A stretch of 64,000 nt of DNA, from contig JAIRUP010000014.1 of NCBI GenBank assembly GCA_031254335.1, positions 3,043-67,042 on the forward strand. The letters run 5' to 3'. This stretch comes from Rickettsiales bacterium (GTDB lineage Bacteria; Pseudomonadota; Alphaproteobacteria; Rs-D84). Both the position numbers and the translations under genes were made by a program. The notes beneath the pieces are model-generated. The model had not been told where the DNA came from and searched no databases. It saw only the letters and a program-made list of their open reading frames with translations. Of this stretch, positions 54 through 61,206 are shown piece after piece; the stretch's first letter is position 1, and every line of letters begins with the position of its first letter.

Positions 54-3000
54 ATGGTCGGCTCCGCGCCCATCAGCGGCGCGCTCCGTGGCCGCTCTGC
101 AATTAATAAAAACAACTCCCCCCTTGCGGGGGAGTCGCGGGGCGCCGCGCGCTCCGCGGTGGGGGGTCGAACCGCCCGCTCGGCCGTCGCGAACGCCCAG
201 GTGGATATAAACACACCCTACGGCAAATGCCGCGCTTCGTATTTCTCGTGCATGGATGAATTCTGCGCGAACCGCGACGCGCAGTTCCGCCGTTGCGCGT
301 GTTCGGCGCGCGTGGAGGGCCTTATGAAATTCCAAACGGAGCTGGAAGGCGTCCAGAACATGATGAAGGACTATAACGAGAATCTTCTGCTTGTGGGCGT
401 GTCGGCCGAGCAGGCGGTCGCGGCTATGCAGGCCAGCGGGGGCGAGGACGCCTTCGGCGAAGGGGACACCGGAACGGCGAACAAGAATATTTTGAACAAA
501 TTGTCGGCGGACATAGACCGCCCGACGAAACCCAAGATTTCCGAAGCGATAAGGATAGACATGGACATGAATTTCGCGATGTCGGACGAATGGGCCGGCG
601 GCCAGTCGCGCGCGAGGGAGCTGTTCGGCAAGGATTTATACGATTTCACGGCGGCGTCCTGCAAGAAGATTTCGGCGGACGATTGCGGCGCGAACGATTT
701 GGGCATGGCGGTCTCGGCGTATCAAATGTCGATAGAGCAGGATTGCCTGGCGGTAGAGCGGGGATACGGAAAAATCGCGGACAACGCCATGCGCGGCGTC
801 GCGGAAAGCGGCGCCTTGCTGGACGAGGCGCGTCTTAACGCGGACCAAATACGGAACTCGGACACGGCGTCGGAATGCCGGACGAAGCTGGAAGCGCAAA
901 TGCGTCTTCCGGGAGTCTGCGGCCCCGAGTATGAGCTTTGTATCGATGTGTCGGGCCGGTTTGTGAACAAAGGGTCGGGAAAGCCGATTCTGACGCCGGA
1001 TTTCTGGAAGATAGAGGGCGACGCGGCGAAGAACGTGGCGTCCTTCCGCCGCCTGCTTGAATCGAAGCGGCCTTTGGTGTCGCGCGCGCTGGCGGCGTGC
1101 CAGAAAGACGCGGACGCGGTCTGGACGGGATTTGCGGACGATTTCATCGGTAATGTGAAGGTCGCGCAAACTCGCATGCTGGATTTTGTGCGCCAGGATT
1201 GCACGAAGCTGATAGCGGCGTGCTATAATCAGGCGTCCGCCGGTCTGGAAAACATATCGGACCTGTCGCTAAGCGTTTTGGCGGTTGAAAGTTTCGCGTC
1301 GCAAAAGGTTATATGCCAAAATGTAACGGACAGCTGCCAGGCGATATTGAAATCGGATGTGCCGGACTTGCAAAGCATAGTGTCGAACCAGGAAAGGGAA
1401 TTGCTGCGGAAAAAATGCCTGGACGAAGGGAAGAATTGCATAATGCGGGATTGTATCGCCTATGACGGAAGATTGTGGCTCGGCTGCATTCCCGGCGAAG
1501 CGTCGAACGAAGCCTGCGATGCCAATCCCTATTGCAGAACGGCGCGCGACAACAGGGCAAGGATGATTGGCGAGCCGGATGGAAAGGGCGGTTCGGACTA
1601 TACCCTTGTGAACGAACACGGATGCCTGACCAAAGTGCGCGCCTGCGCCGGGGAATCGTTCAAGCCGACGCTGGCGAACTGCGGCAAAGACGAAAATGAC
1701 AAAGCGTATAGAAATCTTGGGTTCGACAACTGGACGGACTGCATGAACACCGACCATGTCGTCAAATTCATCTGGGGCGATTGGCGGGGCGATTGGAGGG
1801 GCGATTGGAATAGCGATAAAATTTATACTTCGTCCAGTGCCCTCCGCCCGAAAAACTCCACGGTCTTGAACTATTTCTATCACGAATTCCAGGCTCCTGA
1901 AATAGCAGTCGACTACATCTGGAACGACGAGACCTGCGCGCTGATGGGCAACGACGCAAACTGCCTGTTCCCGAACGACCAGGGCTTCGAATCTGCGACA
2001 ACCCAGCTTAAGAAAGACACCCTCGTCGCGCGGGAAATGCTTAAACGGTATTTTATCGAGAATTTCAACTATATGATTGGCAGCACGGGCCAAAGAACGC
2101 CAAGCGAAAAATTTTCTGACCTCGAAACCAGATTGAAATTGTATCTCGGCCTGAAAGGCGACATAACCCAATTCGCCGACATGTTCGGAAGCGCTGCGAA
2201 ACAAGCGACAACTCTTTGGCAGGAAAGTTGCACTTATGATTATAATATTGAAGATTCATGTGATAATAAATTCAATAATGAACCTAATGATATTTTCAGC
2301 CAAGTTGCTTTCCCCTCCGCCTCCTTCCTCTCCTGGCTGGCCATGTGGCCCAAGAACCGCACCTGCCCCTCCGGCCGATCCAACAACCAGAACAATTCGA
2401 ATATGTTCTATTCCAACGCCGCATACGCCTACAACCAGCAATTCTTCCTATGCGCCGACGACGATTGCAGCTCGGGCTCATGCCCCGGCGGCCGATGGGG
2501 CGGCCTGTTTGACAGAAACAAAGCCGCTAATTGCGACCCCGGCAAAGAATATAGGGACGGCGATTGCGGGGACTGCCGCGAAGGCTACTACAAGCCGAAT
2601 GCTGGCACCGCCGCCTGCACCTTATGCAATCGGATGGCCGCCGACAAAAACAACGAGCCCGTCAGCTCTGGTGCGGTCGACTGCGTTGCATGCAAGGCTT
2701 CTCCTGGACAATATTGCGCGGGCGGCGCATTGAAACCCTGCCCGGTCGGATACAAATGCCCGGGCGGCGAGGCTTCTGCGGCGGCCTGCCTGCCCGGCGA
2801 AACATCGAACGCCGGGTCTTCCTCGTGCAGGGAATGCGTTGCTGGCGAAATCTGCCCCGGCGGCGCCGCGCCCGGCCAATGCCCGTTCATGAATGAACCG
2901 ACGACGAACCCGCTCGCTGCTTGGTCCGGTAGTTCTGTTACTTATATATTCGACCTGCCGACATCGCCGTCTAGGGCCGCGTCAATAACTGCCTGTTCCC

Positions 3001-4802
3001 GAACGATGCCATGCAGAAATGAAAACGACAACAGCATCGGCATCCAAACATGCTGGTCGCAGTCCATCTTGGGCACCAATTGGATTGATACATATACATC
3101 CTCATGCGGGACGACGACATGCCGGACTATTGCTTGCGGTCAAGGTATGGAGAAAGTCGGCGAAACATGCGCACAATGCCCCGCCGGAAAATACAAAAAC
3201 ACAATCGGAGATACCGCCTGCCTTCCCTGCGCCGACGGATACTATTCGGACTCTCCGGGTCGGTCGTTATGCAGCCCTTGCCCGACAGACAAAATATGCC
3301 CTGATAAAGCCAGCTCCCCTGAACTTTGCGGGCAGGGAAACTGGTGTGCATCTAATACCCGGCATCCATGCGCCGCCGGAACTTATAGTGCCCAGCCGTC
3401 AAGGACTACCCAATGCGACAACCAATGCCCTGCCGGCTATTACTGCCCTCCGGGTTCGATAAATGGCTCTGTGCCGGGCAACTTGTGTAAAGAGGGCTGT
3501 TATTGCCCGCAAGGTTCGGGTGCCAGCGCGGATGCCAATTGTCAGAACTTCTGCAATGCCGGATATTTGTGCCTTGCCGGCTCTATAACGGGAACAGGGA
3601 TAACCACGCTTTCTAATGGTAAAACGAATCCATGCGGCAAGGACAATTACTGCCCCCTCGCAACTTCAATCGATACTTTGACAACCGAGCGGAAACAGTG
3701 CGACAGCAAATATACGACCGACGCTAACGACGCCCGATTGAACGGACAAAGCCATCCGGACGCTCCGCCGTCGTCTGACACGGCGTACCTGGAAAGTCAT
3801 TGCGCCATTGGTTGCGGACAAGACGGCTTATATGTGAATACTTTGAAGGGTGAATGCGTCCAGCTCGCAACCGACGACTCGAATTGCAGATATGTCAAAG
3901 CGCATGCGGTCAGCCAAACGCAGACTTCGGAAACTGCATCTAAGATTTCAACCTGCCCGTCTGGTTGCAATCTGAACAGGAACACTGCCGGCATAGACGG
4001 TTGCGCGGCGGCAGACTTGGATTGGAATATGAACAACGGAAAAGGAAAGCGAACCTGCTGGCTTGCTGCTGCAATAAACGTATACAATCCGACTGTAAAC
4101 GAAGCCAATACCGCAAGATGCGACTCTATAACCACGACTTCCTGCAATGCCGGCTACAAATTCAATAGTGCCGGTTCCGCTTACAACCAATGTGAAATCT
4201 GCCCCATCGACACATACAAATCCGCGGAATCGCTTGCAACCGCCTGCACTGCCTGCGCGGACGGTTATACGACCAACAACGGACAGGGCAAAACAAATCA
4301 ATCCGATTGCATTATAACCTGCCCTGCCGGTCAATATGTAGCGACCGCCGGACATGGCTGCGTCGCTGTTCCGGCCGGCACATACAGCTCGTCTCATACC
4401 GTCGCCCAGGGCAGCATAAGCCCCCCCCCCCCGTCCGACCCCGTAAAACAGTGTCCAGACAACTGTGTCAATGCCGACCAGAATAATCAAACCGCGATAA
4501 CCGGCTGCCGCAACAACAATGCGTCTTGGACCGTAAGCAACGGAGCGGGGACAATGTCTTGCGGCGCGACTGCGGCAAGTCCGACCTGCGTTCCATCCGG
4601 CAGCGCGACAACGCAATGCTCCGGACATGCGATAACTTCGTGCAACGCGGGATATTATATGACCGGGTCCGGGACAGCTGCGGCCTGCACGGCCGTGGGC
4701 AACGGTTATGCAAGCCCGCAAGATTCGCTTACAAGAACGCAATGCGCTGCGCCGACCGGCTGCTCTAATGCGGACAAATCGGCCTGCGTCGCCTGCCCCT
4801 AA
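54..4802 (+). CDS. Giant secreted cysteine-rich protein of more than 1580 aa, with an N-terminal domain followed by tandem CxxC..G.Y repeats; the 5' end probably lies upstream of the window
   Basis: The reading frame stays open back to position 3, and there is no signal peptide within the window. From about 2500 to 4800 it carries dozens of repeats such as CPAGYY and CxxCxxGxY, matching the ephrin-receptor-like / furin-like / GCC2_GCC3 pattern. The N-terminal roughly 550 aa are homologous to the 20160-21425 protein. Confidence 0.8.
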   Translation: MVGSAPISGALRGRSAINKNNSPLAGESRGAARSAVGGRTARSAVANAQVDINTPYGKCRASYFSCMDEFCANRDAQFRRCACSARVEGLMKFQTELEGVQNMMKDYNENLLLVGVSAEQAVAAMQASGGEDAFGEGDTGTANKNILNKLSADIDRPTKPKISEAIRIDMDMNFAMSDEWAGGQSRARELFGKDLYDFTAASCKKISADDCGANDLGMAVSAYQMSIEQDCLAVERGYGKIADNAMRGVAESGALLDEARLNADQIRNSDTASECRTKLEAQMRLPGVCGPEYELCIDVSGRFVNKGSGKPILTPDFWKIEGDAAKNVASFRRLLESKRPLVSRALAACQKDADAVWTGFADDFIGNVKVAQTRMLDFVRQDCTKLIAACYNQASAGLENISDLSLSVLAVESFASQKVICQNVTDSCQAILKSDVPDLQSIVSNQERELLRKKCLDEGKNCIMRDCIAYDGRLWLGCIPGEASNEACDANPYCRTARDNRARMIGEPDGKGGSDYTLVNEHGCLTKVRACAGESFKPTLANCGKDENDKAYRNLGFDNWTDCMNTDHVVKFIWGDWRGDWRGDWNSDKIYTSSSALRPKNSTVLNYFYHEFQAPEIAVDYIWNDETCALMGNDANCLFPNDQGFESATTQLKKDTLVAREMLKRYFIENFNYMIGSTGQRTPSEKFSDLETRLKLYLGLKGDITQFADMFGSAAKQATTLWQESCTYDYNIEDSCDNKFNNEPNDIFSQVAFPSASFLSWLAMWPKNRTCPSGRSNNQNNSNMFYSNAAYAYNQQFFLCADDDCSSGSCPGGRWGGLFDRNKAANCDPGKEYRDGDCGDCREGYYKPNAGTAACTLCNRMAADKNNEPVSSGAVDCVACKASPGQYCAGGALKPCPVGYKCPGGEASAAACLPGETSNAGSSSCRECVAGEICPGGAAPGQCPFMNEPTTNPLAAWSGSSVTYIFDLPTSPSRAASITACSRTMPCRNENDNSIGIQTCWSQSILGTNWIDTYTSSCGTTTCRTIACGQGMEKVGETCAQCPAGKYKNTIGDTACLPCADGYYSDSPGRSLCSPCPTDKICPDKASSPELCGQGNWCASNTRHPCAAGTYSAQPSRTTQCDNQCPAGYYCPPGSINGSVPGNLCKEGCYCPQGSGASADANCQNFCNAGYLCLAGSITGTGITTLSNGKTNPCGKDNYCPLATSIDTLTTERKQCDSKYTTDANDARLNGQSHPDAPPSSDTAYLESHCAIGCGQDGLYVNTLKGECVQLATDDSNCRYVKAHAVSQTQTSETASKISTCPSGCNLNRNTAGIDGCAAADLDWNMNNGKGKRTCWLAAAINVYNPTVNEANTARCDSITTTSCNAGYKFNSAGSAYNQCEICPIDTYKSAESLATACTACADGYTTNNGQGKTNQSDCIITCPAGQYVATAGHGCVAVPAGTYSSSHTVAQGSISPPPPSDPVKQCPDNCVNADQNNQTAITGCRNNNASWTVSNGAGTMSCGATAASPTCVPSGSATTQCSGHAITSCNAGYYMTGSGTAAACTAVGNGYASPQDSLTRTQCAAPTGCSNADKSACVACP
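101..172 (+). repeat. Family-A palindromic element (CTCCCCCCTTGCGGGGGAGTCG..GGTGGGGGGTCG) inserted in-frame in the giant gene
   Basis: The same bipartite palindrome recurs at 13059, 13421, 32236, 37416, 39327 and 39881. Each copy is preceded by an AT-rich TAATAAA-like motif. Confidence 0.8.
1776..1811 (+). repeat. Three tandem copies of a 12-bp repeat (GGCGATTGGNGG) encoding GDWRGDWRGDWN
   Basis: Tandem units read directly at 1776-1787, 1788-1799 and 1800-1811. Confidence 0.8.
4421..4432 (+). repeat. Poly-C12 homopolymer inside the giant gene, encoding PPPP
   Basis: Twelve consecutive C residues counted in the sequence. This is a potential slipped-strand tract. Confidence 0.7.
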
Positions 4803-4803
4803 C

Positions 4804-4948
4804 CCCCTTGTCACCCCAGGCAACCGCGCCGAAAGGCGGGGCGACCATGGGTCTCCGACCCCTTCCCTATTGTCATGGTCGGATTTAATCCGACCATCCA
4901 GGTAATAAGCTGTCGCCTCCGGCGACACATCCCTTCTTCCTTCTTCCT
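4804..4948 (+). repeat. Composite family-B element made of a C-like 5' part, the hairpin TGTCATGGTCGG..CCGACCATCCAGGTAAT, a second hairpin TGTCGCC..GGCGACA and a TTCTTCC tail
   Basis: The modular structure is shared with copies at 6111, 37768, 39603, 40444, 51512 (inverted), 58166 (inverted), 21447 and 38283. Confidence 0.75.
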
Positions 4949-6110: not shown

Positions 6111-6215
6111 CTTTGTCATGGTCGGGCCTGACCCGACCATCCAGGTAATAAATTGTCGCCACAGGCGACACAATACTTCTTCCTTCTTACTTCCTACTTC
6201 TTCCTCATCCCCGTC
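6111..6215 (+). repeat. Family-B composite element; its TTCTTCC tail encodes the last codons (MRKK, stop) of the HAD gene on the opposite strand
   Basis: It shows the pattern CTTTGTCATGGTCGGGCCTGACCCGACCATCCAGGTAATAAATTGTCGCCACAGGCGACA followed by TTCTTCC repeats. Confidence 0.75.
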
Positions 6216-6865
6216 CTCGAATCAACCCAAACCTGTTCCTTTGCAAGCCTCATCATCGGCAAATCCGACTTTGAATCGGAATACGCCCGAACAACTTCCA
6301 AAGTTCCCCTCCTGTGGAGGGGTGCCCGACTTGTCCGCCGAAGCCCGAAGGGCGAAGGTGGAAGGCCGGGGTCCATTGTGTGATTCATTATTATTGTGCC
6401 GTTCGCCCACTCATCCAACCTATCCACCTTCCATTCCCCCCAGCACGGCTTGTCGTATCTCCAAGGCTTAGCCTTGTCCATGACGGAACTTATGACGGCG
6501 TCGAATCCCAAATCCGCGACCAGCGGAGGAAGCAGAAAATCCGGGCTGGCGGAAATGCAAACAACCGTCGCGCCGCGCGCTTTTTCCTCGGCGATTTTTT
6601 CCGCGGCCCATCCGAATCGGTTGCGCCTGTGTTCCTTTATGAATCCCGCCGCATACTTCCGCGCCATGCCGGGGGTCAGGTATCTGCGCATGGCCTCGCG
6701 GCACCATTTTCCGTTTGGATTCAGAAGTTTTCCAACCGCGCCGGCGATAAGCCAGGGCAGAAATAAAAACTGGCGGAAACTTCTGAAAAAAGTGTATTTG
6801 TAAAATTCGGCGTTCGCGTCCCTCGCGGACAGCGTCCCGTCAAAATCGAAAAGCACTATTTTCAT
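6194..6865 (-). CDS. HAD-superfamily hydrolase
   Basis: The N-terminus reads MKIVLFDFDGTL, the HAD motif I. Confidence 0.65.
   Translation of the reverse strand: MKIVLFDFDGTLSARDANAEFYKYTFFRSFRQFLFLPWLIAGAVGKLLNPNGKWCREAMRRYLTPGMARKYAAGFIKEHRRNRFGWAAEKIAEEKARGATVVCISASPDFLLPPLVADLGFDAVISSVMDKAKPWRYDKPCWGEWKVDRLDEWANGTIIMNHTMDPGLPPSPFGLRRTSRAPLHRRGTLEVVRAYSDSKSDLPMMRLAKEQVWVDSRTGMRKK
6296..6400 (+). repeat. Family-C element (..TTCCCCTCCTGTGGAGGGG..GACTTGTCCGCCGAAGCCCGAAGGGCGAAGGTGGAAGGCCGGGGT..)
   Basis: A near-identical copy is inserted in-frame in hemW at 12708-12787. Partial copies lie at 16385 and 37297. Confidence 0.7.
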
Positions 6866-6904
6866 AATCTCTGCTCTTGTTATATTTTTATTATAACACT
6901 CGAA

Positions 6905-6945
6905 AAATATTAGCGCAATCGCGTTTTCGAGAGAAAATCAAACGC
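6905..6945 (+). repeat. Partial family-D repeat (TTAGCGCAATCGCGTTTTCGAGAG..) that supplies the stop codon and C-terminus of the RND gene
   Basis: It shares about 20 nt (CAATCGCGTTTTCGAGA) with copies at 58262, 38401 and 61050. Confidence 0.55.
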
Positions 6946-12410: not shown

Positions 12411-13550
12411 ATGATAAAAGTTCCGCCGCACCATTTGTATATCCATGTCCCGTTCTGCGAAAGGAAATGCCCCTATTGCGCGTTCCATTCAAGCGCGGAA
12501 AAACCGGATTGGGACAAATACGCGGCGGATATAATCGCGGCGATAAGCGAAAGCCCGGGCTGCGAAGTCCCGACGATATTCTTCGGCGGCGGCACGCCAA
12601 GCCTTATGCCGGCGGCGACGCTTGAAAAAATCCTGAACGCCGCGCATAAGCATTTCACAGTTTCGCCCGACGCCGAAATCACAATCGAAATGAATCCCGG
12701 AACCCTTGAATTCCCCTCCCGGGAGGGGGTGGCCGACTTGTCCGCCGAAGCCCAAAGGGCGAAGGGGGAAGGCCGGGGTGGGAACCAACTATCCGATTAC
12801 AAATCTCTCGGCATAACGCGAATCTCGGTCGGCGCGCAAAGTTTTAATGACGGCGAATTGCGTTTCCTCGGGCGCATACACGACGCGAAGCAGGCGCGCG
12901 AAACCATAACGGCGGCGCAGAACGCGGGCTTCGAAACATCGGCGGACTTTATATACGCCCTGCCCGGCCAAACCGTGGCGGATGTCGAGAAATTATGCCG
13001 TGAAATAAAATCCATGGGCCTGACCCACGCCTCGCTCTACGAACTCACCCTCGAACCTGGTAATAAACTCCCCCCTTGCGGGGGAGTCGGCGACGAAGTC
13101 GCCGGTGGGGGGTCGAAAACGGAGATGTGGCTTTCCATCGGACATATCCTTAACCGCTATGAAGTGTCCAACTACGCCCAGCCCGGCCATGAATGCAAAC
13201 ATAATTCGGGAATCTGGGCGGGAGAGCCTTATATAGGCCTGGGCCCGTCCGCCGCCGGCCGCATATTCGACGGGACTAACTGGTATGAACAATATACTCC
13301 TCCGTCATCACTTCTTCCTTCTTCCTTCGTCCTTCTTCCTTCCCATGACCGCGCGGTTGAAAAAGTGATAACGGGCCTTCGCACCAAGCGCGGCGTCCGC
13401 CTTTCGCCGGATGTCCTGGAAATATTAAACTCCCCGCTTGCGGGAAAGTCGAAAAAGCGCGAGCTTTTTCGGTGGGGGGTCGATTCGCTTGCCCTTTCCG
13501 ACTCCGGCCTTTTAATACTGGACTCCCTGCTGCCGGACATGATAAAATAA
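12411..13550 (+). CDS. hemW: Radical-SAM heme chaperone HemW (HemN-like), carrying four in-frame repeat insertions
   Basis: The CxxxCxxC motif reads HLYIHVPFCERKCPYCAF. The start is set at MIKVPP (12411); the ORF track places it at 12372. Insertions lie at 12708-12787 (family C), 13059-13118 (A), 13299-13345 (TTCTTCC tail) and 13421-13483 (A). Each is a multiple of 3 nt and stop-free. Confidence 0.8.
   Translation: MIKVPPHHLYIHVPFCERKCPYCAFHSSAEKPDWDKYAADIIAAISESPGCEVPTIFFGGGTPSLMPAATLEKILNAAHKHFTVSPDAEITIEMNPGTLEFPSREGVADLSAEAQRAKGEGRGGNQLSDYKSLGITRISVGAQSFNDGELRFLGRIHDAKQARETITAAQNAGFETSADFIYALPGQTVADVEKLCREIKSMGLTHASLYELTLEPGNKLPPCGGVGDEVAGGGSKTEMWLSIGHILNRYEVSNYAQPGHECKHNSGIWAGEPYIGLGPSAAGRIFDGTNWYEQYTPPSSLLPSSFVLLPSHDRAVEKVITGLRTKRGVRLSPDVLEILNSPLAGKSKKRELFRWGVDSLALSDSGLLILDSLLPDMIK
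12708..12787 (+). repeat. Family-C element in-frame in hemW (PSREGVADLSAEAQRAKGEGRGGNQ)
   Basis: It matches the 6296-6372 copy. Confidence 0.8.
13059..13118 (+). repeat. Family-A element in-frame in hemW
   Basis: CTCCCCCCTTGCGGGGGAGTCGGCGACGAAGTCGCCGGTGGGGGGTCG. Confidence 0.8.
13299..13345 (+). repeat. TTCTTCC-type tail repeat in-frame in hemW (PSSLLPSSFVLLPS)
   Basis: The same TTCTTCCTTCTTCC motif appears at 4930, 6178, 18140 and 21500. Confidence 0.7.
13421..13483 (+). repeat. Family-A element in-frame in hemW
   Basis: CTCCCCGCTTGCGGGAAAGTCG..GGTGGGGGGTCG. Confidence 0.8.
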
Positions 13551-16690: not shown

Positions 16691-17836
16691 TTACTGACAT
16701 TCCCCGGCAATCGAACCGCTTGCGAAAGCCCAATGCAAATTGAATCCGCCTAAATCTCCTGTTATGTCCAAAACCTCGCCCGCGAAATACAAGCCCGGAC
16801 ACAGTTTGGATTCGAATGTCTTGGATGAAATTTCGTCGGTGGAAACGCCGCCAAGCATAACTTCCGCGCTGTCGAACCCGCGGACCTTGACATTGGGGAT
16901 GACGAAATCGTTTATTTTTTTCGCCAACGCCTCCAACTGTATGTCTTTATAGTCCGCAAGGTTTTTATCATAATCTTCCGAAATCCATTTGGCGAATCGC
17001 ACGGGCAAATACGCGCCCAAAACGGTGGACGGCGATTTCGCGCCATCCGTGTTTTTCGCGCCAATCAACAAATCCTTCGCCGGAATCCCGGGCATAAAAT
17101 TTATGCGGACGCCCTTGGACAAGTCGAGAAGCGACGCGCGGTAGGCGGCCGGGCCCCCGATTCCGAAATGCGTGAACAGCAGCGAATCGTTTATCCCGTT
17201 TATCCGAACCGTCAACGCCATGCCCGCGAACTCCGCCGGGAACGCGCCGGTTTTTAACCCGGCCAAGCCCGGACGGACGGGTTCGATTTTATGCCCGAAT
17301 TTCCTGGCGATTTTCATTCCGGAATCGGACGCGCCCAGCGAAGGGAACGAAACCCCGCCAGTCGCGACAACAACTGTCGTGCCGGCATAGGCGGGAATCC
17401 CGGATTGTAAAAAAATCAAAAATTCATTGTCCTTTTTCTCCACATCCCTAACCTCCGCCCCAAGCGCAATATCCGCTCCGCGCGCGTCGGCAAGCATGGC
17501 CTTGACCAAAACTTCCGCGCCGTCTTTGCAGAAAAATTGCCCGGGATTTTTTTCGATGTATTTTATTCCATGCCGCTTGGCCCAGTCCAAAATGTCGGCG
17601 GGGCGAACGCGCGCCAGGGCGGATTTTGCGAAGTCGGGATTCTTTCCGAAATAGCGGGACGAGTCGGCCGCCGAATTTGTGAAGTTGCAGCGGCCTCCGC
17701 CGGAAACGGAAACCTTTCGCAAGGGCGCGCCGCCGTCCAAAACGAGAACGCTTTTGCCGCGGGCAAGCGCGGCGCGCGCGGCGGCCAGCCCTGCCGCCCC
17801 CGCCCCGATAATTATGACATCATATTTTTTGGTCAT
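16691..17836 (-). CDS. NAD(FAD)-utilising dehydrogenase of the HI0933 / BaiN family (flavoprotein)
   Basis: The N-terminal FAD-binding motif reads MTKKYDVIIIGAGAAGLAAA. Its start overlaps the cysS end by 17 nt. Confidence 0.75.
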   Translation of the reverse strand: MTKKYDVIIIGAGAAGLAAARAALARGKSVLVLDGGAPLRKVSVSGGGRCNFTNSAADSSRYFGKNPDFAKSALARVRPADILDWAKRHGIKYIEKNPGQFFCKDGAEVLVKAMLADARGADIALGAEVRDVEKKDNEFLIFLQSGIPAYAGTTVVVATGGVSFPSLGASDSGMKIARKFGHKIEPVRPGLAGLKTGAFPAEFAGMALTVRINGINDSLLFTHFGIGGPAAYRASLLDLSKGVRINFMPGIPAKDLLIGAKNTDGAKSPSTVLGAYLPVRFAKWISEDYDKNLADYKDIQLEALAKKINDFVIPNVKVRGFDSAEVMLGGVSTDEISSKTFESKLCPGLYFAGEVLDITGDLGGFNLHWAFASGSIAGECQ

Positions 17837-19193
17837 TTACAATATGCCCCGCCGCCGCCAGTTTGTCGCGCAATTCATCGGATTTCTTCCAATCCTTCGC
17901 GGCGCGCGCGGCGGCGCGCTGGTCCAGCAACGCCTGAATCTCGGGTGTGATTTCCGCGGCAGGCCTCGTCGCGCTCTCTACAAGGCGAAGTCCCAAAAGC
18001 TCGTCCGCATATTTTGCGACCGCAAGTTTCACCGCGTCCGGTTCGTCCGATTTCAGAACCGCCTGCAATTCGGCCAGCACATTCGCCGTATCAAGATTAT
18101 TCGATATGATGTCTAATAATTTATTGTTTATTTCAATACTTCTTCCTTCTTCCTTCTGCCTTCTGCCTTTCTCCATCGCCGCCGCCACCTTGCGCACAAG
18201 ATTCCTGTATCCGGCGGCGGCGGCGTCCAACGCCTCCCAGGAAAATTCCAGCTGGCTTTTGTAATGCCCGGTCAAAAGGAGATAGCGGTATGCCATCGGG
18301 TCATAGCCTTTGGATTTAAGCAGCCCAAGGGTCAGAAATTCGCCTTTCGACTTGCTCATCTTGCCGCCCTTTTCGTTCAGGAACTCGCCGTGCAGCCAGT
18401 AATTAACCCAAGGCGCGCCGACGATTGGCTCGGACTGCGCGATTTCGTTGGTGTGATGAACCTTGATGTGGTCGATTCCGCCGGTGTGAATGTCGAAATG
18501 CGCGCCCAGGGTCTCCGCGCTCATGACGCTGCATTCGATGTGCCAGCCGGGAAAGCCCCTGCCCCACGGGCTGTCCCATTCCATGTCGCGCTTGGCGTCG
18601 GTTGGGGAAAATTTCCAAAGGGCGAAATCGGTCGGATTTTTTTTGCCGGCGTCGGATACGCGCGCGCCGCCGCGCAGCTCGTCCAAATTCTGATGGCCCA
18701 GCTTTCCGTAATCGGGGAATTTGGAAGTGTCGTAATAAATGCCGTCCCCGGGAATCTCGTAAGTGTATCCCAGGTCTTCCAGCTTTTTAACCCATGCGAT
18801 TTGCTGGGCGATGTAATCGGTCGCGCGCGGCATGTTGGCCGGCTCCGGAATGTTCAGGTCGCGCAAATCGCCGCGAAAGGCGGCCTCGTAGAATTTGGCG
18901 ATGTCCCAGGCGGTCTTTCCCTCGCGCCGCGCGCCCTTTTGCATCTTGTCTTCGCCGGCGTCCTCGTCGGACACAAGGTGTCCGACATCGGTTATGTTTA
19001 TGGTGTTGTTGACTCTGTATCCGTTGGCGATGAACATCCGGCGAAGTATGTCGGAATTGACGAACGCGCGAAGGTTCCCGATGTGGGCGAAGTCGTAGAC
19101 GGTGGGCCCGCATGAATAGATGGAAACTTGGCCCGGAACGCGCGGCTTGAACTCTTCGGCTTTAAGCGACATCGTGTTGTAAAGTTTTATCAT
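17820..19193 (-). CDS. cysS: Cysteinyl-tRNA synthetase
   Basis: HIGH motif (CGPTVYDFAHIGN) and KMSKS are present. The C-terminal region carries an in-frame insertion (MEKGRRQKEEGRSIEINNKLLDI) encoded by the TTCTTCC tail plus an AT-rich module at 18106-18172. Confidence 0.9.
   Translation of the reverse strand: MIKLYNTMSLKAEEFKPRVPGQVSIYSCGPTVYDFAHIGNLRAFVNSDILRRMFIANGYRVNNTINITDVGHLVSDEDAGEDKMQKGARREGKTAWDIAKFYEAAFRGDLRDLNIPEPANMPRATDYIAQQIAWVKKLEDLGYTYEIPGDGIYYDTSKFPDYGKLGHQNLDELRGGARVSDAGKKNPTDFALWKFSPTDAKRDMEWDSPWGRGFPGWHIECSVMSAETLGAHFDIHTGGIDHIKVHHTNEIAQSEPIVGAPWVNYWLHGEFLNEKGGKMSKSKGEFLTLGLLKSKGYDPMAYRYLLLTGHYKSQLEFSWEALDAAAAGYRNLVRKVAAAMEKGRRQKEEGRSIEINNKLLDIISNNLDTANVLAELQAVLKSDEPDAVKLAVAKYADELLGLRLVESATRPAAEITPEIQALLDQRAAARAAKDWKKSDELRDKLAAAGHIVNDQKI
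18106..18172 (+). repeat. AT-rich module plus TTCTTCCTTCTTCCTTCTGCC tail repeat, in-frame inside cysS
   Basis: Same tail motif as the B-family tails. Confidence 0.65.
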
Positions 19194-32235: not shown

Positions 32236-32395
32236 TGATTAACTCCCCCCCCTTGCGGGGGAGTCGTCGCGCCGGCGCGAAGCGCAGGCGGACGGTGGGG
32301 GGGGGTCATCCCTCGACGGTTCGCGCCGAAGACGGACGACTCATCCCTTCTTGCTTCTATCTTGAAAATATACCCCTTCCCTTTCATTAAGTCAA
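32236..32395 (+). repeat. Family-A element plus CATCCCTTCTT-type tail in the dnaE 5' leader
   Basis: AACTCCCCCCCCTTGCGGGGGAGTCG..GGTGGGGGGGGGTCA followed by a pyrimidine-rich tail. Confidence 0.7.
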
Positions 32396-37268: not shown

Positions 37269-37278
37269 ATTTTTTCCT

Positions 37279-37372
37279 TTGTCATACCAAGCAGAGTCTT
37301 CCGCCGCCCGTCACCCCCGAGAAGTCGGGGGTCCATTGTGTTAAACTGTCGCCGCAAGCGACTCATTTTACA
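37279..37372 (+). repeat. Composite element (B-like TTGTCATACC, C-like GTCACCCCCGAGAAGTCGGGGGTCCATTGTG, hairpin TGTCGCCGCAAGCGACTCA)
   Basis: Modules shared with families B and C. Confidence 0.55.
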
Positions 37373-37415
37373 AAGGAAAATATAGTGCAAACCCGTATAT
37401 AAGTCAATGCTTTAC

Positions 37416-37486
37416 TATAAATAACTCCCCCCTTGCGGGGGAGTCGAAATTTTCAAGGAAAATTTCGGTGAGTGGGGGGGGGTCAA
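37416..37486 (+). repeat. Family-A element; it overlaps the stop of the 37483-37764 gene
   Basis: ACTCCCCCCTTGCGGGGGAGTCGAAATTTTCAAGGAAAATTTCGGTGAGTGGGGGGGGGTCA. Confidence 0.75.
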
Positions 37487-37764
37487 AAATTCTCCACGGG
37501 AACTTTATAAACGCGCATGGCCTCTCCGGCCTTGTCGACTTCCGCGACAAGAATCTGCTTCGCGGTCTTCAAATGCTTGGAAACCATATAAGGCATGTGT
37601 TCAAGAAGCACTTCTTCCGTGGGCCGCCTGAAAAGAACGGCGCGTCCGCGGCCGGACGCGGAAAGCCGCGGCTCCAATTCGCCGCCCGCGCGCGCGGAAA
37701 GGACCAGCACCCAGGGCTTCCCCCGCCGCTCTATAAAATCGAAATAAGGCTCGACCGTCCGCAC
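37483..37764 (-). CDS. Small conserved protein of 93 aa, possibly of the DUF167 / YggU family
   Basis: Weak pattern similarity (VLVLSARAGG..., ...KHLKTAKQILV). Confidence 0.35.
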   Translation of the reverse strand: MRTVEPYFDFIERRGKPWVLVLSARAGGELEPRLSASGRGRAVLFRRPTEEVLLEHMPYMVSKHLKTAKQILVAEVDKAGEAMRVYKVPVENF

Positions 37765-37767
37765 AAC

Positions 37768-37820
37768 CCATCCCCTTTATTGTCATGGTCGGGCTTGACC
37801 CGACCATCCAGGTAATTGTC
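37768..37820 (+). repeat. Family-B hairpin element (TTGTCATGGTCGGGCTTGACCCGACCATCCAGGTAAT)
   Basis: Near-identical to the 6111 copy. Confidence 0.8.
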
Positions 37821-37867
37821 ATTTTATTATAGCATATTTATTTTTGCTATGCTATACACTTATCGCA

Positions 37868-38197
37868 ATGACCCAAAACGACGAGATTTTTCAGTTCATA
37901 CGGAACACGCAGGAGCGGCTGAACAACCCGGACCGCCAAGCGGCGATGCGCGCGGCGCAAACCGAGCCGACGGCGCAAAATCAGGGCCAAATACAAGACT
38001 TGAAGCTGGACCAAATCGTGTCGGATGTGTTCGTCGTGTCGCCTGCGCAGTTGGAGCTGATAATAGAATATACGGCGAAAAGCCTTGCAATCGGCCTGAA
38101 TGTTAAAACGATGTATCCGAAGATTTTACGGCTGACGGATAAAGCGTTGAAGGAAGCCATGAATAAATCGAAACGCCTCGGCGCCAAGCGAAAGTAA
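37868..38197 (+). CDS. Hypothetical protein of about 109 aa (the ORF track starts at 37844)
   Basis: Clean ORF with no motif recognised. Confidence 0.35.
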   Translation: MTQNDEIFQFIRNTQERLNNPDRQAAMRAAQTEPTAQNQGQIQDLKLDQIVSDVFVVSPAQLELIIEYTAKSLAIGLNVKTMYPKILRLTDKALKEAMNKSKRLGAKRK

Positions 38198-38217
38198 TTA
38201 CATCTCGTCACCCCGGC

Positions 38218-38226
38218 GGGGGGGGG
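38218..38226 (+). repeat. Poly-G9 homopolymer (intergenic)
   Basis: Counted directly. Confidence 0.6.
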
Positions 38227-38282
38227 CGCGATTTCGATGGATAATTTTAATAAAACTCAAAAAATAATTAGGGGCGTCGCGT

Positions 38283-38385
38283 TTCCCCCTCCCCTCCACC
38301 GTCATGCCAGCCCCCCCCCCCCTCCTCCGCCGTCATGCTGGCGAAGGCCAGCATCCAGTAATAAGTCCTGCGTTAGCAGGTTAAT
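38283..38385 (+). repeat. Family-B variant (hairpins TGCTGGCGAAGGCCAGCA and TCCTGCGTTAGCAGG) containing a poly-C12 tract at 38311-38322
   Basis: Same module order as B copies: hairpin, CCAGTAATAA, hairpin 2. Confidence 0.55.
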
Positions 38386-38387
38386 AA

Positions 38388-38556
38388 ACTCTAAAAAAGT
38401 TTAGCGCAATCGCGTTTTTGATGGATAATCGTCCAATACCGAGAAAAACCGACCGACGCTGGCCTTGGTCGCCGCCGCGGCGTGTCGGGTTTGCGACGGT
38501 AGTGGGTGATTTGACCCGGCGGACGGAAAAGTCCGCCCTGTTTTTTGTCCGCTTAT
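38388..38556 (+). repeat. Full-length family-D element of about 165 nt: conserved 5' box, long hairpin with copy-specific stem, box AGTGGGYGATTTR, and a terminal hairpin plus T-run
   Basis: Aligns with 51581-51740, 61036-61206 and 63322-63478. Short forms lie at 58240-58300, 38243-38283 and 6905-6945. Confidence 0.7.
38517..38548 (+). terminator. Intrinsic terminator formed by the 3' hairpin of the family-D element
   Basis: Hairpin GGCGGAC-GGAAAA-GTCCGCC followed by TTTTTT. Confidence 0.5.
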
Positions 38557-39034: not shown

Positions 39035-40321
39035 ATGCCTGTAATCGTCAAATCTTTCGGGTGCCGCCTGAACGCGCTCGAGGCCGCGAAAATCGAAATC
39101 GTGGCGTCGCGTGCGGGCCTGACCGACGCGCTGATATTCAATACCTGCGCGGTGACAGGCGAAGCGGAAGCCCAGGCCCGGCAAGCCATAAGGAAAGCGG
39201 CAAGGGAAAACCCTGGCGCGCGGATTTTCGTGGTGGGCTGCGGGGCGGACAGGAACCCGGACGGATTTGCGAAGCTGCCCAATGTCGCGGCGGTGATAAA
39301 AAACGCCGACAAATTCACCCCCGAATCATATAACCCAACTCCCCCCTTGCGGGGGAGTCGGCAAGGCGAAGCCGAGCCGGTGGGGGGTCAAAACATAACA
39401 ATCGAAAAATGCGGGCAGTTTTCAAAGGGTTTCGTCCAAATCCAAACGGGCTGCAACTATGCCTGCACATATTGTATTGTCCATACATTGCGCGGCCCCG
39501 CGCGCTCATTTGACTACGACGCAATCCTGGCGCAAACAAAACAGCTGACTTCAAGCGGTTATTCCGAAATCACCCTTACCGGCGTGGACATCGCCTCCTA
39601 CAAGTTCCCCTCCCCTGTCATGGTCGGGCAAGGACCCGACCATCCAGGTCATAAATCCCGCGATAGCGGGTTATTATCACTCATCCAAAAACTCTTGACC
39701 GACGACCCCGACATCCAACGCCTCCGCCTGTCATCCCTTGACCCGGCGCACGACTGGTCGGATTTAATCAAACTTATGAAAGAAAACCCGCGGCTTATGC
39801 CGCACCTTCACCTGTCCATGCAGTCGGGAAGCGACGAAATCCTGCGCCTTATGGCCCGCCGCCACCGCATCGCCGACATATTGAAACTCCCCCCTTGCGG
39901 GAAAGTCGGCGGCTTTGCCGCCGGTGGGGGGTCAATCACCTTCTCCGTGGACATCATAACCGGCTTCCCGGGCGAAACGGACGAACTCTTCCAAGAAACC
40001 CTAGCGACCCTCGAAAAGCTCCGCCCTATAAGAATCCACGCATTCCCGTTTTCGCCGCGCCCCGGCACGCCGGCGGCGACATTTCCAAACCAAGTCCCGA
40101 AATCGGTGGCGAAAGACCGGGTGCGGGAATTAAACGCGCTTGGGACTAAATTCCTAAATGAATTCATGGTTTCCCAACTTGGCCGCCCCACCCAAGTCCT
40201 AATGGAAAGGGGCGGCGTGGGGCGCACCCCGAACGATATAGAGTTTCTTTTTGACGCGCCCGAAGGGGCGATTTTGACCCTTACCCCGACCGAAATAAAA
40301 GACGCAAAATTCAAGGCCTAA
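39035..40321 (+). CDS. MiaB-family radical-SAM tRNA/ribosomal methylthiotransferase (MtaB/RimO-like), carrying three in-frame repeat insertions
   Basis: It has an N-terminal MTTase domain (KSFGCRLNALEAAKIE), the CxxxCxxC motif IQTGCNYACTYCIV, and a TRAM-like C-terminus. Insertions lie at 39327-39393 (A), 39603-39682 (B) and 39881-39934 (A). Confidence 0.8.
   Translation: MPVIVKSFGCRLNALEAAKIEIVASRAGLTDALIFNTCAVTGEAEAQARQAIRKAARENPGARIFVVGCGADRNPDGFAKLPNVAAVIKNADKFTPESYNPTPPLRGSRQGEAEPVGGQNITIEKCGQFSKGFVQIQTGCNYACTYCIVHTLRGPARSFDYDAILAQTKQLTSSGYSEITLTGVDIASYKFPSPVMVGQGPDHPGHKSRDSGLLSLIQKLLTDDPDIQRLRLSSLDPAHDWSDLIKLMKENPRLMPHLHLSMQSGSDEILRLMARRHRIADILKLPPCGKVGGFAAGGGSITFSVDIITGFPGETDELFQETLATLEKLRPIRIHAFPFSPRPGTPAATFPNQVPKSVAKDRVRELNALGTKFLNEFMVSQLGRPTQVLMERGGVGRTPNDIEFLFDAPEGAILTLTPTEIKDAKFKA
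39327..39393 (+). repeat. Family-A element in-frame in the methylthiotransferase gene
   Basis: AACTCCCCCCTTGCGGGGGAGTCGGCAAGGCGAAGCCGAGCCGGTGGGGGGTCA. Confidence 0.8.
39603..39682 (+). repeat. Family-B element in-frame in the methylthiotransferase gene (PSPVMVGQGPDHPGHKSRDSGLLSL)
   Basis: TGTCATGGTCGGGCAAGGACCCGACCATCCAGGTCATAAATCCCGCGATAGCGGGTT. Confidence 0.8.
39881..39934 (+). repeat. Family-A element in-frame in the methylthiotransferase gene
   Basis: CTCCCCCCTTGCGGGAAAGTCGGCGGCTTTGCCGCCGGTGGGGGGTCA. Confidence 0.8.
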
Positions 40322-40443: not shown

Positions 40444-40530
40444 ATTTCATGTGAAATGGCGCGCTCCGCGCACCATTTCACATTATAATTGTCATGGTCG
40501 GGCCAGGACCCGACCATCCAGGTTATAATC
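40444..40530 (+). repeat. Palindrome (TGTGAAATGGCGCGC / GCGCACCATTTCACA) followed by a family-B hairpin
   Basis: Read directly. The B hairpin is TTGTCATGGTCGGGCCAGGACCCGACCATCCAGGTTAT. Confidence 0.7.
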
Positions 40531-51511: not shown

Positions 51512-51580
51512 TATATTGTGTCGCCTACGGCGACGGTTATTACCTGGGTCCTCGGGTCAAGCCCGAGGATGACAATTTTT
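51512..51580 (-). repeat. Family-B element in inverted orientation (hairpin 2 TGTCGCCTACGGCGACGG, then ATTACCTGGGTCCTCGGGTCAAGCCCGAGGATGACAAT)
   Basis: Reverse complement of the B consensus. Confidence 0.7.
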
Positions 51581-51740
51581 AATAAGGCCAAAAAAATCTT
51601 ACCGAGGTCGCGTTTTCGAGGATAAATCGTTCAATGCGCGGGAAAACCGACCCGAGTCTGGACTTGACGGTCCGCGAGGTGTCGGTTTTCCAAGCAAGTG
51701 GGCGATTTAGACCGAAAACGAAAAACCGAGGTTATGATTT
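51581..51740 (+). repeat. Full-length family-D element
   Basis: It has the 5' box CGCGTTTTCGAGGATAAATCG. The long hairpin pairs GGAAAACCGAC with GTCGGTTTTCC. It also has the box AGTGGGCGATTTAGACC. Confidence 0.7.
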
Positions 51741-55340: not shown

Positions 55341-58216
<2,876 letters not shown>

Positions 58217-58239
58217 TTAAAATTAAATTAATAAGCTCA

Positions 58240-58300
58240 TAATGAACTCAAAAAATAATTAGGCCAATCGCGTTTTCGAGAATAAAACGCGATTGGCCTT
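58240..58300 (+). repeat. Short-form family-D element: 15-bp perfect hairpin GGCCAATCGCGTTTT / AAAACGCGATTGGCC flanked by A-run and T-run
   Basis: It sits between the fabI stop and the ligA start, and is terminator-like for fabI on the minus strand. Confidence 0.65.
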
Positions 58301-61033: not shown

Positions 61034-61035
61034 AA

Positions 61036-61206
61036 AATTGATAAACTAAAAAATAATTGGCGCAATCGCAATTTCGATGACAAACCGCCGAGGACCAAGA
61101 AAAACAGGTCGGCGTCTGGACTTACTCGTCCGCGACGACCTGTTTTTCGCCGTGTCATTCGGCGGTTTGGCGCGAAATTGAAAAATTGCGCTTTTATTTT
61201 TTGCCT
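61036..61206 (+). repeat. Full-length family-D element
   Basis: The long hairpin pairs GAAAAACAGGTCG with CGACCTGTTTTTC. The terminal hairpin GCGCGAAATT/AATTGCGC is followed by a T-run. Confidence 0.7.

Follow-up and report, generated by a model that had tools for sequence, protein, structure and literature searches.

A hemW gene with dispersed repeat modules in frame at four sites

We analysed a stretch of 64,000 nucleotides (hereafter the window) from a Rickettsiales bacterium (GenBank assembly GCA_031254335.1, contig JAIRUP010000014.1, positions 3,043 to 67,042), in which the radical-SAM gene hemW contains four segments belonging to repeat families found elsewhere in the same DNA. We put the probability at about 80% that hemW was colonised at four loops by dispersed selfish repeat modules, which the ribosome reads as loop residues that are either additional or take the place of native ones. 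Palindromic repeats in frame within genes are already known, although they have mainly been regarded as an oddity of Rickettsia and a small number of other genomes, and hemW, with four elements in a single 1.1-kb gene, is a real and extreme case of them.

The four segments recur in the window (Table 1), as an initial annotation of this DNA had claimed. The family C element at site 1 is 90% identical over 69 nt to a second copy (blastn E value 4e-19). The 23-nt family A motif ACTCCCCSCTTGCGGGRRAGTCG, present in segments 2 and 4, has seven copies in the window, all of them on the plus strand, while the segment-3 motif ACTTCTTCCTTCTTCCTTC gives eight matches at five loci; the repeat motif counts (7, 8 and 5) each compare with 0.00 expected from shuffled sequences. 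No stop codon interrupts the segments, and the peptide LPPCGGVGDEVAGGGS at site 2 is as first reported; LPPCGGVGDEVAGGGSK is an example of the predicted peptide across an insert junction. Other parts of the initial annotation had to be amended. It described each segment as a multiple of 3 nt, but segments 1 and 3 had been delimited at 80 and 47 nt. It counted four insertions, of which only site 1 is a clean one (23 codons), whereas sites 2–4 replace native residues, with net gains of 11, 7 and 2 codons. It called all of them palindromic, which holds for the hairpin-forming sites 1, 2 and 4 but not for segment 3, with a folding energy of 0 kcal/mol. "High-GC" is true in a relative sense for a window of 53.8% GC, and, where the annotation spoke of insertion into essential genes, it is not known that HemW is one.

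The computed fold of the site 1 element consists of a hairpin, CCCCTCC-CGG-GAGGGGG, and a long imperfect second hairpin, followed by CCGGGGTGGG. At site 2, a family A element stands where the native TPF..P.N loop is gone, leaving the protein 11 codons longer than in the relatives L108 and L110; its DNA fold has a z-score of -3.4. Site 3 has 16 codons in place of nine native ones and forms no hairpin (minimum free energy 0 kcal/mol), and site 4 has 17 codons in place of 15. An AlphaFold model of the window HemW has a mean predicted local distance difference test score (pLDDT) of 89.3, with dips exactly at sites 1 (54-58), 2 (53-75) and 4 (~69), as expected if these are added surface loops. Site 3 was modelled confidently (pLDDT 89-92) as a loop and a strand, the strand being SFVLL. 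Homologs in the PDB aligned on both sides of site 1 and skipped it. The sites would thus be loops, both because of the pLDDT dips at sites 1, 2 and 4 and because the corresponding loops of a second gene, mtaB, hold different elements elsewhere (see below).

A codon alignment was made of hemW against its syntenic orthologs in L107, L108 (with its duplicate L109) and L110, which have in common the gene order HAD, RND pump, YknX, OEP and hemW; a MarR gene precedes hemW in L108, L109 and L110 and was not called in L107. The closest relative is L110, with 77-79% nucleotide identity over the pump operon adjoining hemW. All four segments are missing from both L110 and L108, and site 1 shows no added length in about 85 further orthologs; nearly all of 89 orthologs are without the site 1 insertion. 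The alignment thus indicates that the hemW events are lineage-specific, in agreement with the proposal in the initial annotation that elements had been placed between conserved HemW blocks in the manner of Rickettsia. L107 has elements exactly at sites 1 and 2, of different sequence but the same layout. This touches on the expectation that orthologs should lack such segments, but since the L107 segments are repeat elements of other sequence, the reading stands. They are either old insertions that were lost twice or repeated hits on the same loops; the latter is supported by mtaB, where one site (M2) carries different elements in the window and in the relative L111. A peptide in PriA of L004 (MAG Nl494_bin11, a metagenome-assembled genome; residues ~232-270), FPFAGEGVD.EAGRGSG, lies beside a family A copy and is near-identical to the L107 site-1 element, so that this element type, too, belongs to a dispersed family.

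Two further observations concern the loops themselves. In L108, the native sequence at site 4 (ATCGAAAAAAATCCGATTTTATTC; L108 10900-10960, corresponding to window 13440-13475) is an imperfect palindrome that shares TCGAAAAA with the second hairpin of the window element, which may reflect a target preference or coincidence. In element-free relatives (hemW of L108 and L110, mtaB of P0123), the loops at the window's element sites are 2-7 residues shorter than the ortholog consensus, as would fit imprecise loss of former elements.

The hemW product contains a Radical_SAM domain (8e-23 in a profile search), and close database relatives carry the name HemW. The best NCBIfam family by far is HemW, TIGR00539, at 195.1 bits, below the curated equivalog cutoff of 205.4, a shortfall plausibly due to the four inserts. 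All 57 columns that are invariant over the 89 orthologs are retained, including the CxxxCxxC cluster motif (C16, C20, C23) and GGGTPS (G59-S64), and a HemN-like C-terminal domain is present. The ratio of nonsynonymous to synonymous substitution (dN/dS) against L110 is 0.21, a rough value because dS is saturated. Judged from the retained invariant residues and a dN/dS of ~0.2, hemW is still under constraint. We considered the possibility that hemW, and with it mtaB, are decaying pseudogenes whose frames have stayed open by chance. The HemW score 10 bits under the NCBIfam cutoff and the missing native loop residues at three sites would be in keeping with decay, but not the intact catalytic residues, the low dN/dS or the confident structure prediction outside the inserts. 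Moreover, all nine modules in well-supported window genes keep the frame (four in hemW, three in mtaB and one each in genes for a HAD-IB hydrolase and CysS), which by chance would have a probability of ~(1/3)^9; a tenth is in frame in the open reading frame (ORF) 54-4802. The same pattern is found in indispensable genes (DnaE, SecA, tRNA synthetases) of other MAGs. Decay is therefore a very improbable account.

Family A consists of a 9-bp hairpin, HP1 (ACTCCCCCC-TTGC-GGGGGAGT), the dinucleotide CG, a second hairpin, HP2, which varies in sequence and keeps its pairing, and then CGGTGGGGGG / GGTGGGGGG. HP1 is identical in four of the seven window copies. Family C has the same layout, with two hairpins and CCGGGGTGGG, but its first hairpin is the different one seen at site 1. 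Family B has the structure TGTC|ATGGTCGGG|CCTGA|CCCGACCAT|CCA, followed in intergenic composites by a second hairpin and a pyrimidine tail. Such a composite (6114..6206) indicates the source of the segment-3 module: segment 3 of hemW is this tail on its own. Eighteen of 20 window modules lie on the plus strand (7/7 for family A, 5/5 tail loci, 6/8 for family B), whose GC skew is positive throughout. A search of Rfam with the whole window at gathering thresholds, and with the hemW region at E values up to 10, returned three tRNAs and noise only. A literature search for the family A motif string found no paper, and the family A repeat type is not described in the searchable literature.

The family A cores within genes are 46, 51, 50, 46 and 52 nt long, so the frame must be held by indels at the junctions and by selection, not by the length of the element. 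Family A is translated in all three sense frames (as KLPPCGGV, NSPLAG(E/K)S and TPPLRGSR), and its conserved parts are free of stop codons in all six frames, which suggests that translation is a by-product of the elements and not their purpose. From the sequence, the inserts are probably translated as extra loops. Alternatively, RNA excision or ribosomal bypass might take them out, either ahead of translation or in the course of it, yielding a protein without them. The hairpins have stable computed folds, and bypassed GC-rich inserts are reportedly known from T4 gene 60 and from yeast mitochondria ("byp"). However, every intragenic copy is in frame and free of stops, which would be needless under bypass or excision; removal at sites 2-4 would leave the protein short of native residues; and we detected neither a take-off and landing codon pair nor a ribozyme. 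Removal of the elements is hardly credible and, of all the alternatives, the one we rate lowest.

The other well-supported genes show how elements come to occupy a site. In mtaB, a second radical-SAM gene with three in-frame elements, the element at site M1 is a replacement with little or no net length change, whereas that at M2 is a plain addition. At M3, the window has a singlet, the left half of the element, where L111 has a full doublet at the identical codon and frame, and singlets can therefore arise from doublets by decay in place. The three loops concerned also carry inserts in MtaB orthologs of other MAGs (P0122, P0126, P0142, P0161, P0177). The insert in the HAD-IB hydrolase adds ~31 codons, made up of family C and about eight codons of adjacent AT-rich sequence (6373-6399), while the tail module in cysS replaces a segment of equal length. 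A homolog, in L057, of the 1582-residue protein encoded by ORF 54-4802 likewise bears an element.

The replacements with little or no net length change, at sites 2, 3 and 4, in cysS and at mtaB M1, raise the question of whether other repeat copies served as templates from which the segments were written onto native sequence prone to form hairpins, through short-patch gene conversion or template switching, with no insertion of a mobile unit. The imperfect palindrome of L108 at site 4, with the TCGAAAAA that it shares with the window HP2, would suit such a process, as would the native AAATTCGCGCCATGC at site 2, which is similar to AAACTCCCCCCTTGC. But 20-31 codons have simply been added at site 1, in the HAD gene and at mtaB M2, the nuclease-encoding full elements and ORF-less doublets described below fit a mobile unit, and insertion followed by loss of neighbouring loop residues would lead to the same end state. 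We consider this origin decidedly unlikely, and insertion of repeat modules remains our preferred reading.

Table 1. Positions of hemW, its repeat modules and related features in the 64,000-nucleotide window.
Feature	Position	Strand	Description
hemW coding sequence	12411..13550	+	379 codons from ATG at 12411; open and in frame across all four elements
hemW site 1, family C element	12711..12779	+	69 nt = 23 codons, FPSREGVADLSAEAQRAKGEGRG; clean insertion in loop after NPGTL-E
hemW site 2, family A left-half element	13067..13114	+	read as (K)LPPCGGVGDEVAGGGS; 16-17 repeat-encoded codons
Site 2 HP1	13067-13087		
Site 2 HP2	13088-13104		CGGCGAC-GAA-GTCGCCG
Site 2 G-run	13105-13112		
hemW site 3, pyrimidine tail module	13301..13342	+	TCATCACTTCTTCCTTCTTCCTTCGTCCTTCTTCCTTC, read as PSSLLPSSFVLLP
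hemW site 4, family A left-half element	13429..13481	+	read as SPLAGKSKKRELFRWGV, in a frame unlike that of site 2
Site 4 HP1 variant	13429-13449		ACTCCCCGCTTGCGGGAAAGT
Site 4 HP2	13450-13471		CGAAAAAGC-GCGA-GCTTTTTCG
Site 4 G-run	13472-13479		
mtaB coding sequence	39035..40321	+	second radical-SAM gene; three in-frame elements
mtaB, family A element	39338-39389		TPPLRGSRQGEAEPVGG
mtaB, CGTC-type REP (family B) and second hairpin	39616-39672		VMVGQGPDHPGHKSRDSG
mtaB, family A element	39886-39933		KLPPCGKVGGFAAGGGS
Second family C copy	6304..6372	+	in frame, antisense to the HAD-IB hydrolase gene that contains it (6194-6865, minus)
Tail module in cysS	18133..18169	+	antisense to cysS (17820-19193, minus); read as GRRQKEEGRSIE
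Family A copy, in frame	115..166	+	NNSPLAGESRGAARSAVGG, residues 21-38 of 1582-residue ORF 54-4802
Family A copy, non-coding	32244..32305	+	~8 codons upstream of the real dnaE start (dnaE on minus strand)
Family A copy	37424..37482	+	within gene-poor stretch 37269-38545
Intergenic composite	6114..6206	+	CGTC-type REP (family B structure), second hairpin and pyrimidine tail
Further CGTC-type REP copies	4871-4902, 37781-37812, 40491-40523		
Further CGTC-type REP copies	51543-51574, 58175-58206	minus	
AT-rich repeat family copies	6887-6939, 38254-38284, 38378-38430, 51576-51628, 58236-58288, 61034-61086		

Outside the window, one genome per species was scanned for the exact pattern, which gave at least 106 family A loci in several phyla; the counts that follow are among the matches listed. 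The hosts are "Rickettsiales" and other Alphaproteobacteria MAGs, Acidimicrobiia, Opitutales, Nitrospira and Latescibacterota, and two sponge-symbiont Gammaproteobacteria with dozens of copies. GC-rich sponge-symbiont MAGs were excluded from the in-frame claims, since open frames arise there by chance. Family A is in frame in at least 18 housekeeping genes of other MAGs, identified by long ORFs through the element, with the hosts confirmed by Pfam: PriA, IleRS, ProRS, DnaE (two MAGs, with several copies in L042), transketolase, AlaRS, PolA, ValRS (two), SecA, CarB, a LolC/E-like permease, Ffh, TsaB, TruB, RecO and UDG, as well as MtaB. In the majority of alphaproteobacterial loci the family A unit forms the left half of a doublet with an inverted right half: 13-26 nt beyond the G-run come CCCCCCACC, a further hairpin and then ACTCCCCC-GCAA-GGGGGGAGT; left-half singlets are the form carried by the window and its termite-gut relatives. 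A database protein search with a doublet-encoded peptide gave no candidate. In an Acidimicrobiia MAG (L059, 2600-2800), HP1 hairpins are arranged head-to-tail with a 38-nt period.

The 104 complete left halves among these matches contain 74 distinct HP2 sequences, all of which fold as hairpins closed by a conserved C-G pair (median z -4.6; 458 GC, 228 AT and 16 GT pairs). Orthologous mtaB copies show the same behaviour, with HP1 retained between the window and L111 and HP2 differing yet still paired. The palindrome of L108 at site 4 had raised the idea that HP2 is built from target DNA via the shared TCGAAAAA, but this is not general: many copies in other genomes share one HP2, which therefore travels with the element. 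An HP2 that varies and is always paired would be a clean natural case of compensatory evolution within coding DNA. The same conservation could instead mean that the elements act as signals through RNA or DNA structure (for example by stabilising mRNA, causing pausing or binding a protein) and are selectively maintained, not merely tolerated as parasites. HP1 is identical in four of seven window copies and also across phyla, HP2 keeps its pairing as its sequence changes, within the two mtaB copies as well, and 18 of the 20 window modules share one strand. Against this, the Rfam searches of the window and the hemW region matched no family to the elements, copies face either way with respect to genes and use all three frames, and the closest relative, L110, lacks all four hemW copies. 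A nuclease that is encoded by the element and recognises HP1, or gene conversion between copies, would account equally well for the conservation of HP1. We regard a maintained signal as unlikely, though it is the strongest of the alternatives to colonisation by selfish modules.

A candidate for such a nuclease came from the doublets. In five of them, L023 (in IleRS), L101 (CarB), L030 (TsaB), L047 and L104, an ORF of ~100 codons with similarity to DUF559 and Vsr lies between the G-run and the C-run, and in L014 a DUF559 ORF abuts the right half. The ORFs at these six loci match DUF559 with values of 2e-33 to 4e-39, and at these loci, which are related ones outside the window, the scores against PF04480 are 113-133 bits, compared with a gathering cutoff of 20.6. 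The host reading frame passes straight through the DUF559 ORF in L023, L101 and L030. The protein resembles E. coli YcjD and the "endonuclease-like protein" of PDB entry 3HRL (7e-26), neither with an assigned function.

In the reverse direction, the best 80 of at least 582 metagenomic DUF559 relatives (L112-L191) were taken, and hairpin layout was counted over 68 loci. The density of C-run/G-run hairpins was 1.81 per kb up to 220 nt from the DUF559 gene versus 0.05 per kb farther out, a 36-fold enrichment (Poisson P ~5e-69) that holds from 39% to 67% GC. At least one flanking hairpin was present at 38 of the 68 loci, and 19 had the order G-run upstream, DUF559 ORF and C-run downstream, where ~0.007 would be expected. 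Literature searches found no paper that ties DUF559 to repeats or in-frame insertion, and the link appears to be undescribed. From this association in sequence we infer that DUF559 may move the elements. Several DUF559 elements are located right at the 5' end of carB (L179, about 2330-3000; L126; L114; L144), and in L179 the element has about 43 nt of the start of carB on either side, which suggests a site-specific insertion that restores the 5' end of its target.

Tentatively, and at somewhat less than even odds, families A and C may represent the end modules of very small mobile elements that form an undescribed class spread over several phyla. Their full form would be ~0.5 kb long, with a DUF559/Vsr-like gene between two inverted double-hairpin repeats, and would give rise to doublets and singlets that invade housekeeping genes in frame. 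The units in hemW would be terminal repeats of a small nuclease-encoding mobile element, and ORF-less doublets and singlets its non-autonomous or decayed derivatives. Spread might proceed via a break or nick followed by copying, or via a single-strand hairpin, leaving ragged junctions, and the survivors would be only those in-frame, stop-free copies that landed at permissive loops of needed genes. Invasion by selfish modules with such selective survival is the mechanism that has the best support.

Several observations weigh against colonisation of hemW by modules of this kind. Native residues are replaced at three of the four hemW sites, which simple transposition does not predict, and segment 3 is a low-complexity tract with the weakest link to any mobile unit. 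No two window copies of family A have an HP2 in common, so that recent copy-and-paste is visible for family C only, and inspection by eye of the window copies and of 12 doublets revealed no target-site duplication. The codon positions shared with distant genomes, as at sites 1 and 2 of L107, could mean old inheritance followed by losses, and the saturation of dS blunts the estimate of constraint. As for the nuclease, there is no DUF559 gene within the 64-kb window, and 30 of the 68 metagenomic DUF559 loci lack a flanking hairpin.

Family A decorates genes of replication, translation and secretion in many uncultured Alphaproteobacteria and could thus be a general source of loop variation. Such elements also add noise to annotation, as family scores fall under their cutoffs and protein lengths are inflated. 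The nesting of DUF559 genes offers a testable candidate for the movement of REP-like repeats (REP, repetitive extragenic palindrome) without a transposase, and a first functional context for a widespread DUF; if the proposed class is real, DUF559 would be the long-sought mobilising or homing enzyme of these repeats, which would give a role to a domain whose function is unknown.

The window also contains repeats that lie outside well-supported genes. In a gene-poor stretch of ~1.3 kb (37269-38545), families A and B are present together with an AT-rich family in two copies; its longest ORF, of 156 codons, runs through family A (NNSPLAGES). The AT-rich family (AACTCAAAAAATAATTAG..GCGTCGCGTTTTCGAG) has the inverted repeat CTCGAAAA/TTTTCGAG and is found at gene ends.

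The closest known systems include the Rickettsia palindromic elements (RPEs) RPE-1 to RPE-8, reportedly described by Ogata et al. in 2000 and 2002. We know of no protein partner for RPEs, whereas families A and C have a candidate in DUF559. As with RPEs, the window elements are dispersed hairpin repeats in frame in housekeeping genes (PMC3733652, PMC1779305), read as extra surface segments, with several possible per gene, and the host is an alphaproteobacterium labelled Rickettsiales. However, families A and C have no sequence in common with RPEs and are GC-rich, shorter (46-69 nt singlets) and cross-phylum, and no NCBIfam RPE model matched HemW, MtaB or HAD.

For mitochondrial GC clusters, to our knowledge, there is no associated nuclease gene of the DUF559 type. 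With these double-hairpin elements and coding palindromes, families A and C have in common that they are GC-rich mobile hairpin pairs, in frame in coding sequence, with compensatory stem changes (PMC6649704), but the clusters are organellar and unrelated in sequence.

The CGTC-tagged REPs (Di Nocera et al. 2013, PMC3733652) predominate in Alphaproteobacteria, include RPE-4 and RPE-6, and have no known dedicated transposase; in-frame copies are present in known proteins of several species, sometimes two per ORF. They are defined by a CGTC/TGTC tag, an 8-9 bp stem starting with A/T pairs, a 4-5 nt loop and a CCA tail. Family B corresponds exactly, with its TGTC tag, 9-bp stem from A-T pairs, 5-nt loop and CCA tail (PMC3733652). 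The initial statement that the window repeats differ from RPEs thus applies to families A and C but not to family B, which is present in mtaB and falls in the class of RPE-4 and RPE-6. Families A and C are not CGTC REPs: their stem begins with AC, they have no CCA tail, the alphaproteobacterial copies are untagged, and they consist of two hairpins and a G-run; hemW itself contains only the accompanying tail and no CGTC hairpin.

By the standards applied to MITEs (miniature transposable elements with inverted repeats), the inverted terminal modules and the longer ORF-bearing versions are present, with no target-site duplication at 12 inspected junctions, and the ORF has a nuclease fold and is no known transposase. 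REPINs, the REP doublets that are mobilised by RAYT transposases (Bertels and Rainey 2011, PMC3116915), are similar in having an inverted doublet as the mobile form, singlets as remnants, a flanked protein gene and strand bias. They differ in being almost always extragenic (PMC3116915), while seven of nine window family A/C copies are inside genes. By sequence, families A and C do not belong to the GTAG/REPIN-RAYT system, having no GTAG tag and flanking a PD-(D/E)xK-type DUF559 ORF instead of an HUH tyrosine transposase; no genome-wide search for RAYTs was made.

Finally, neither a Hint or intein domain nor an intron family turned up at the DUF559 loci, and the elements end in structured inverted repeats, with most copies ORF-less and many per genome, unlike homing endonucleases and inteins. 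In other respects they resemble these, including the Vsr-like homing endonucleases known from "fractured genes" (Dassa et al. 2009, PMC2677866): a small nuclease ORF is found in frame in IleRS, CarB and TsaB, the gene sites recur in distant genomes, and the Vsr-like fold is one that known homing enzymes use (PMC2677866).

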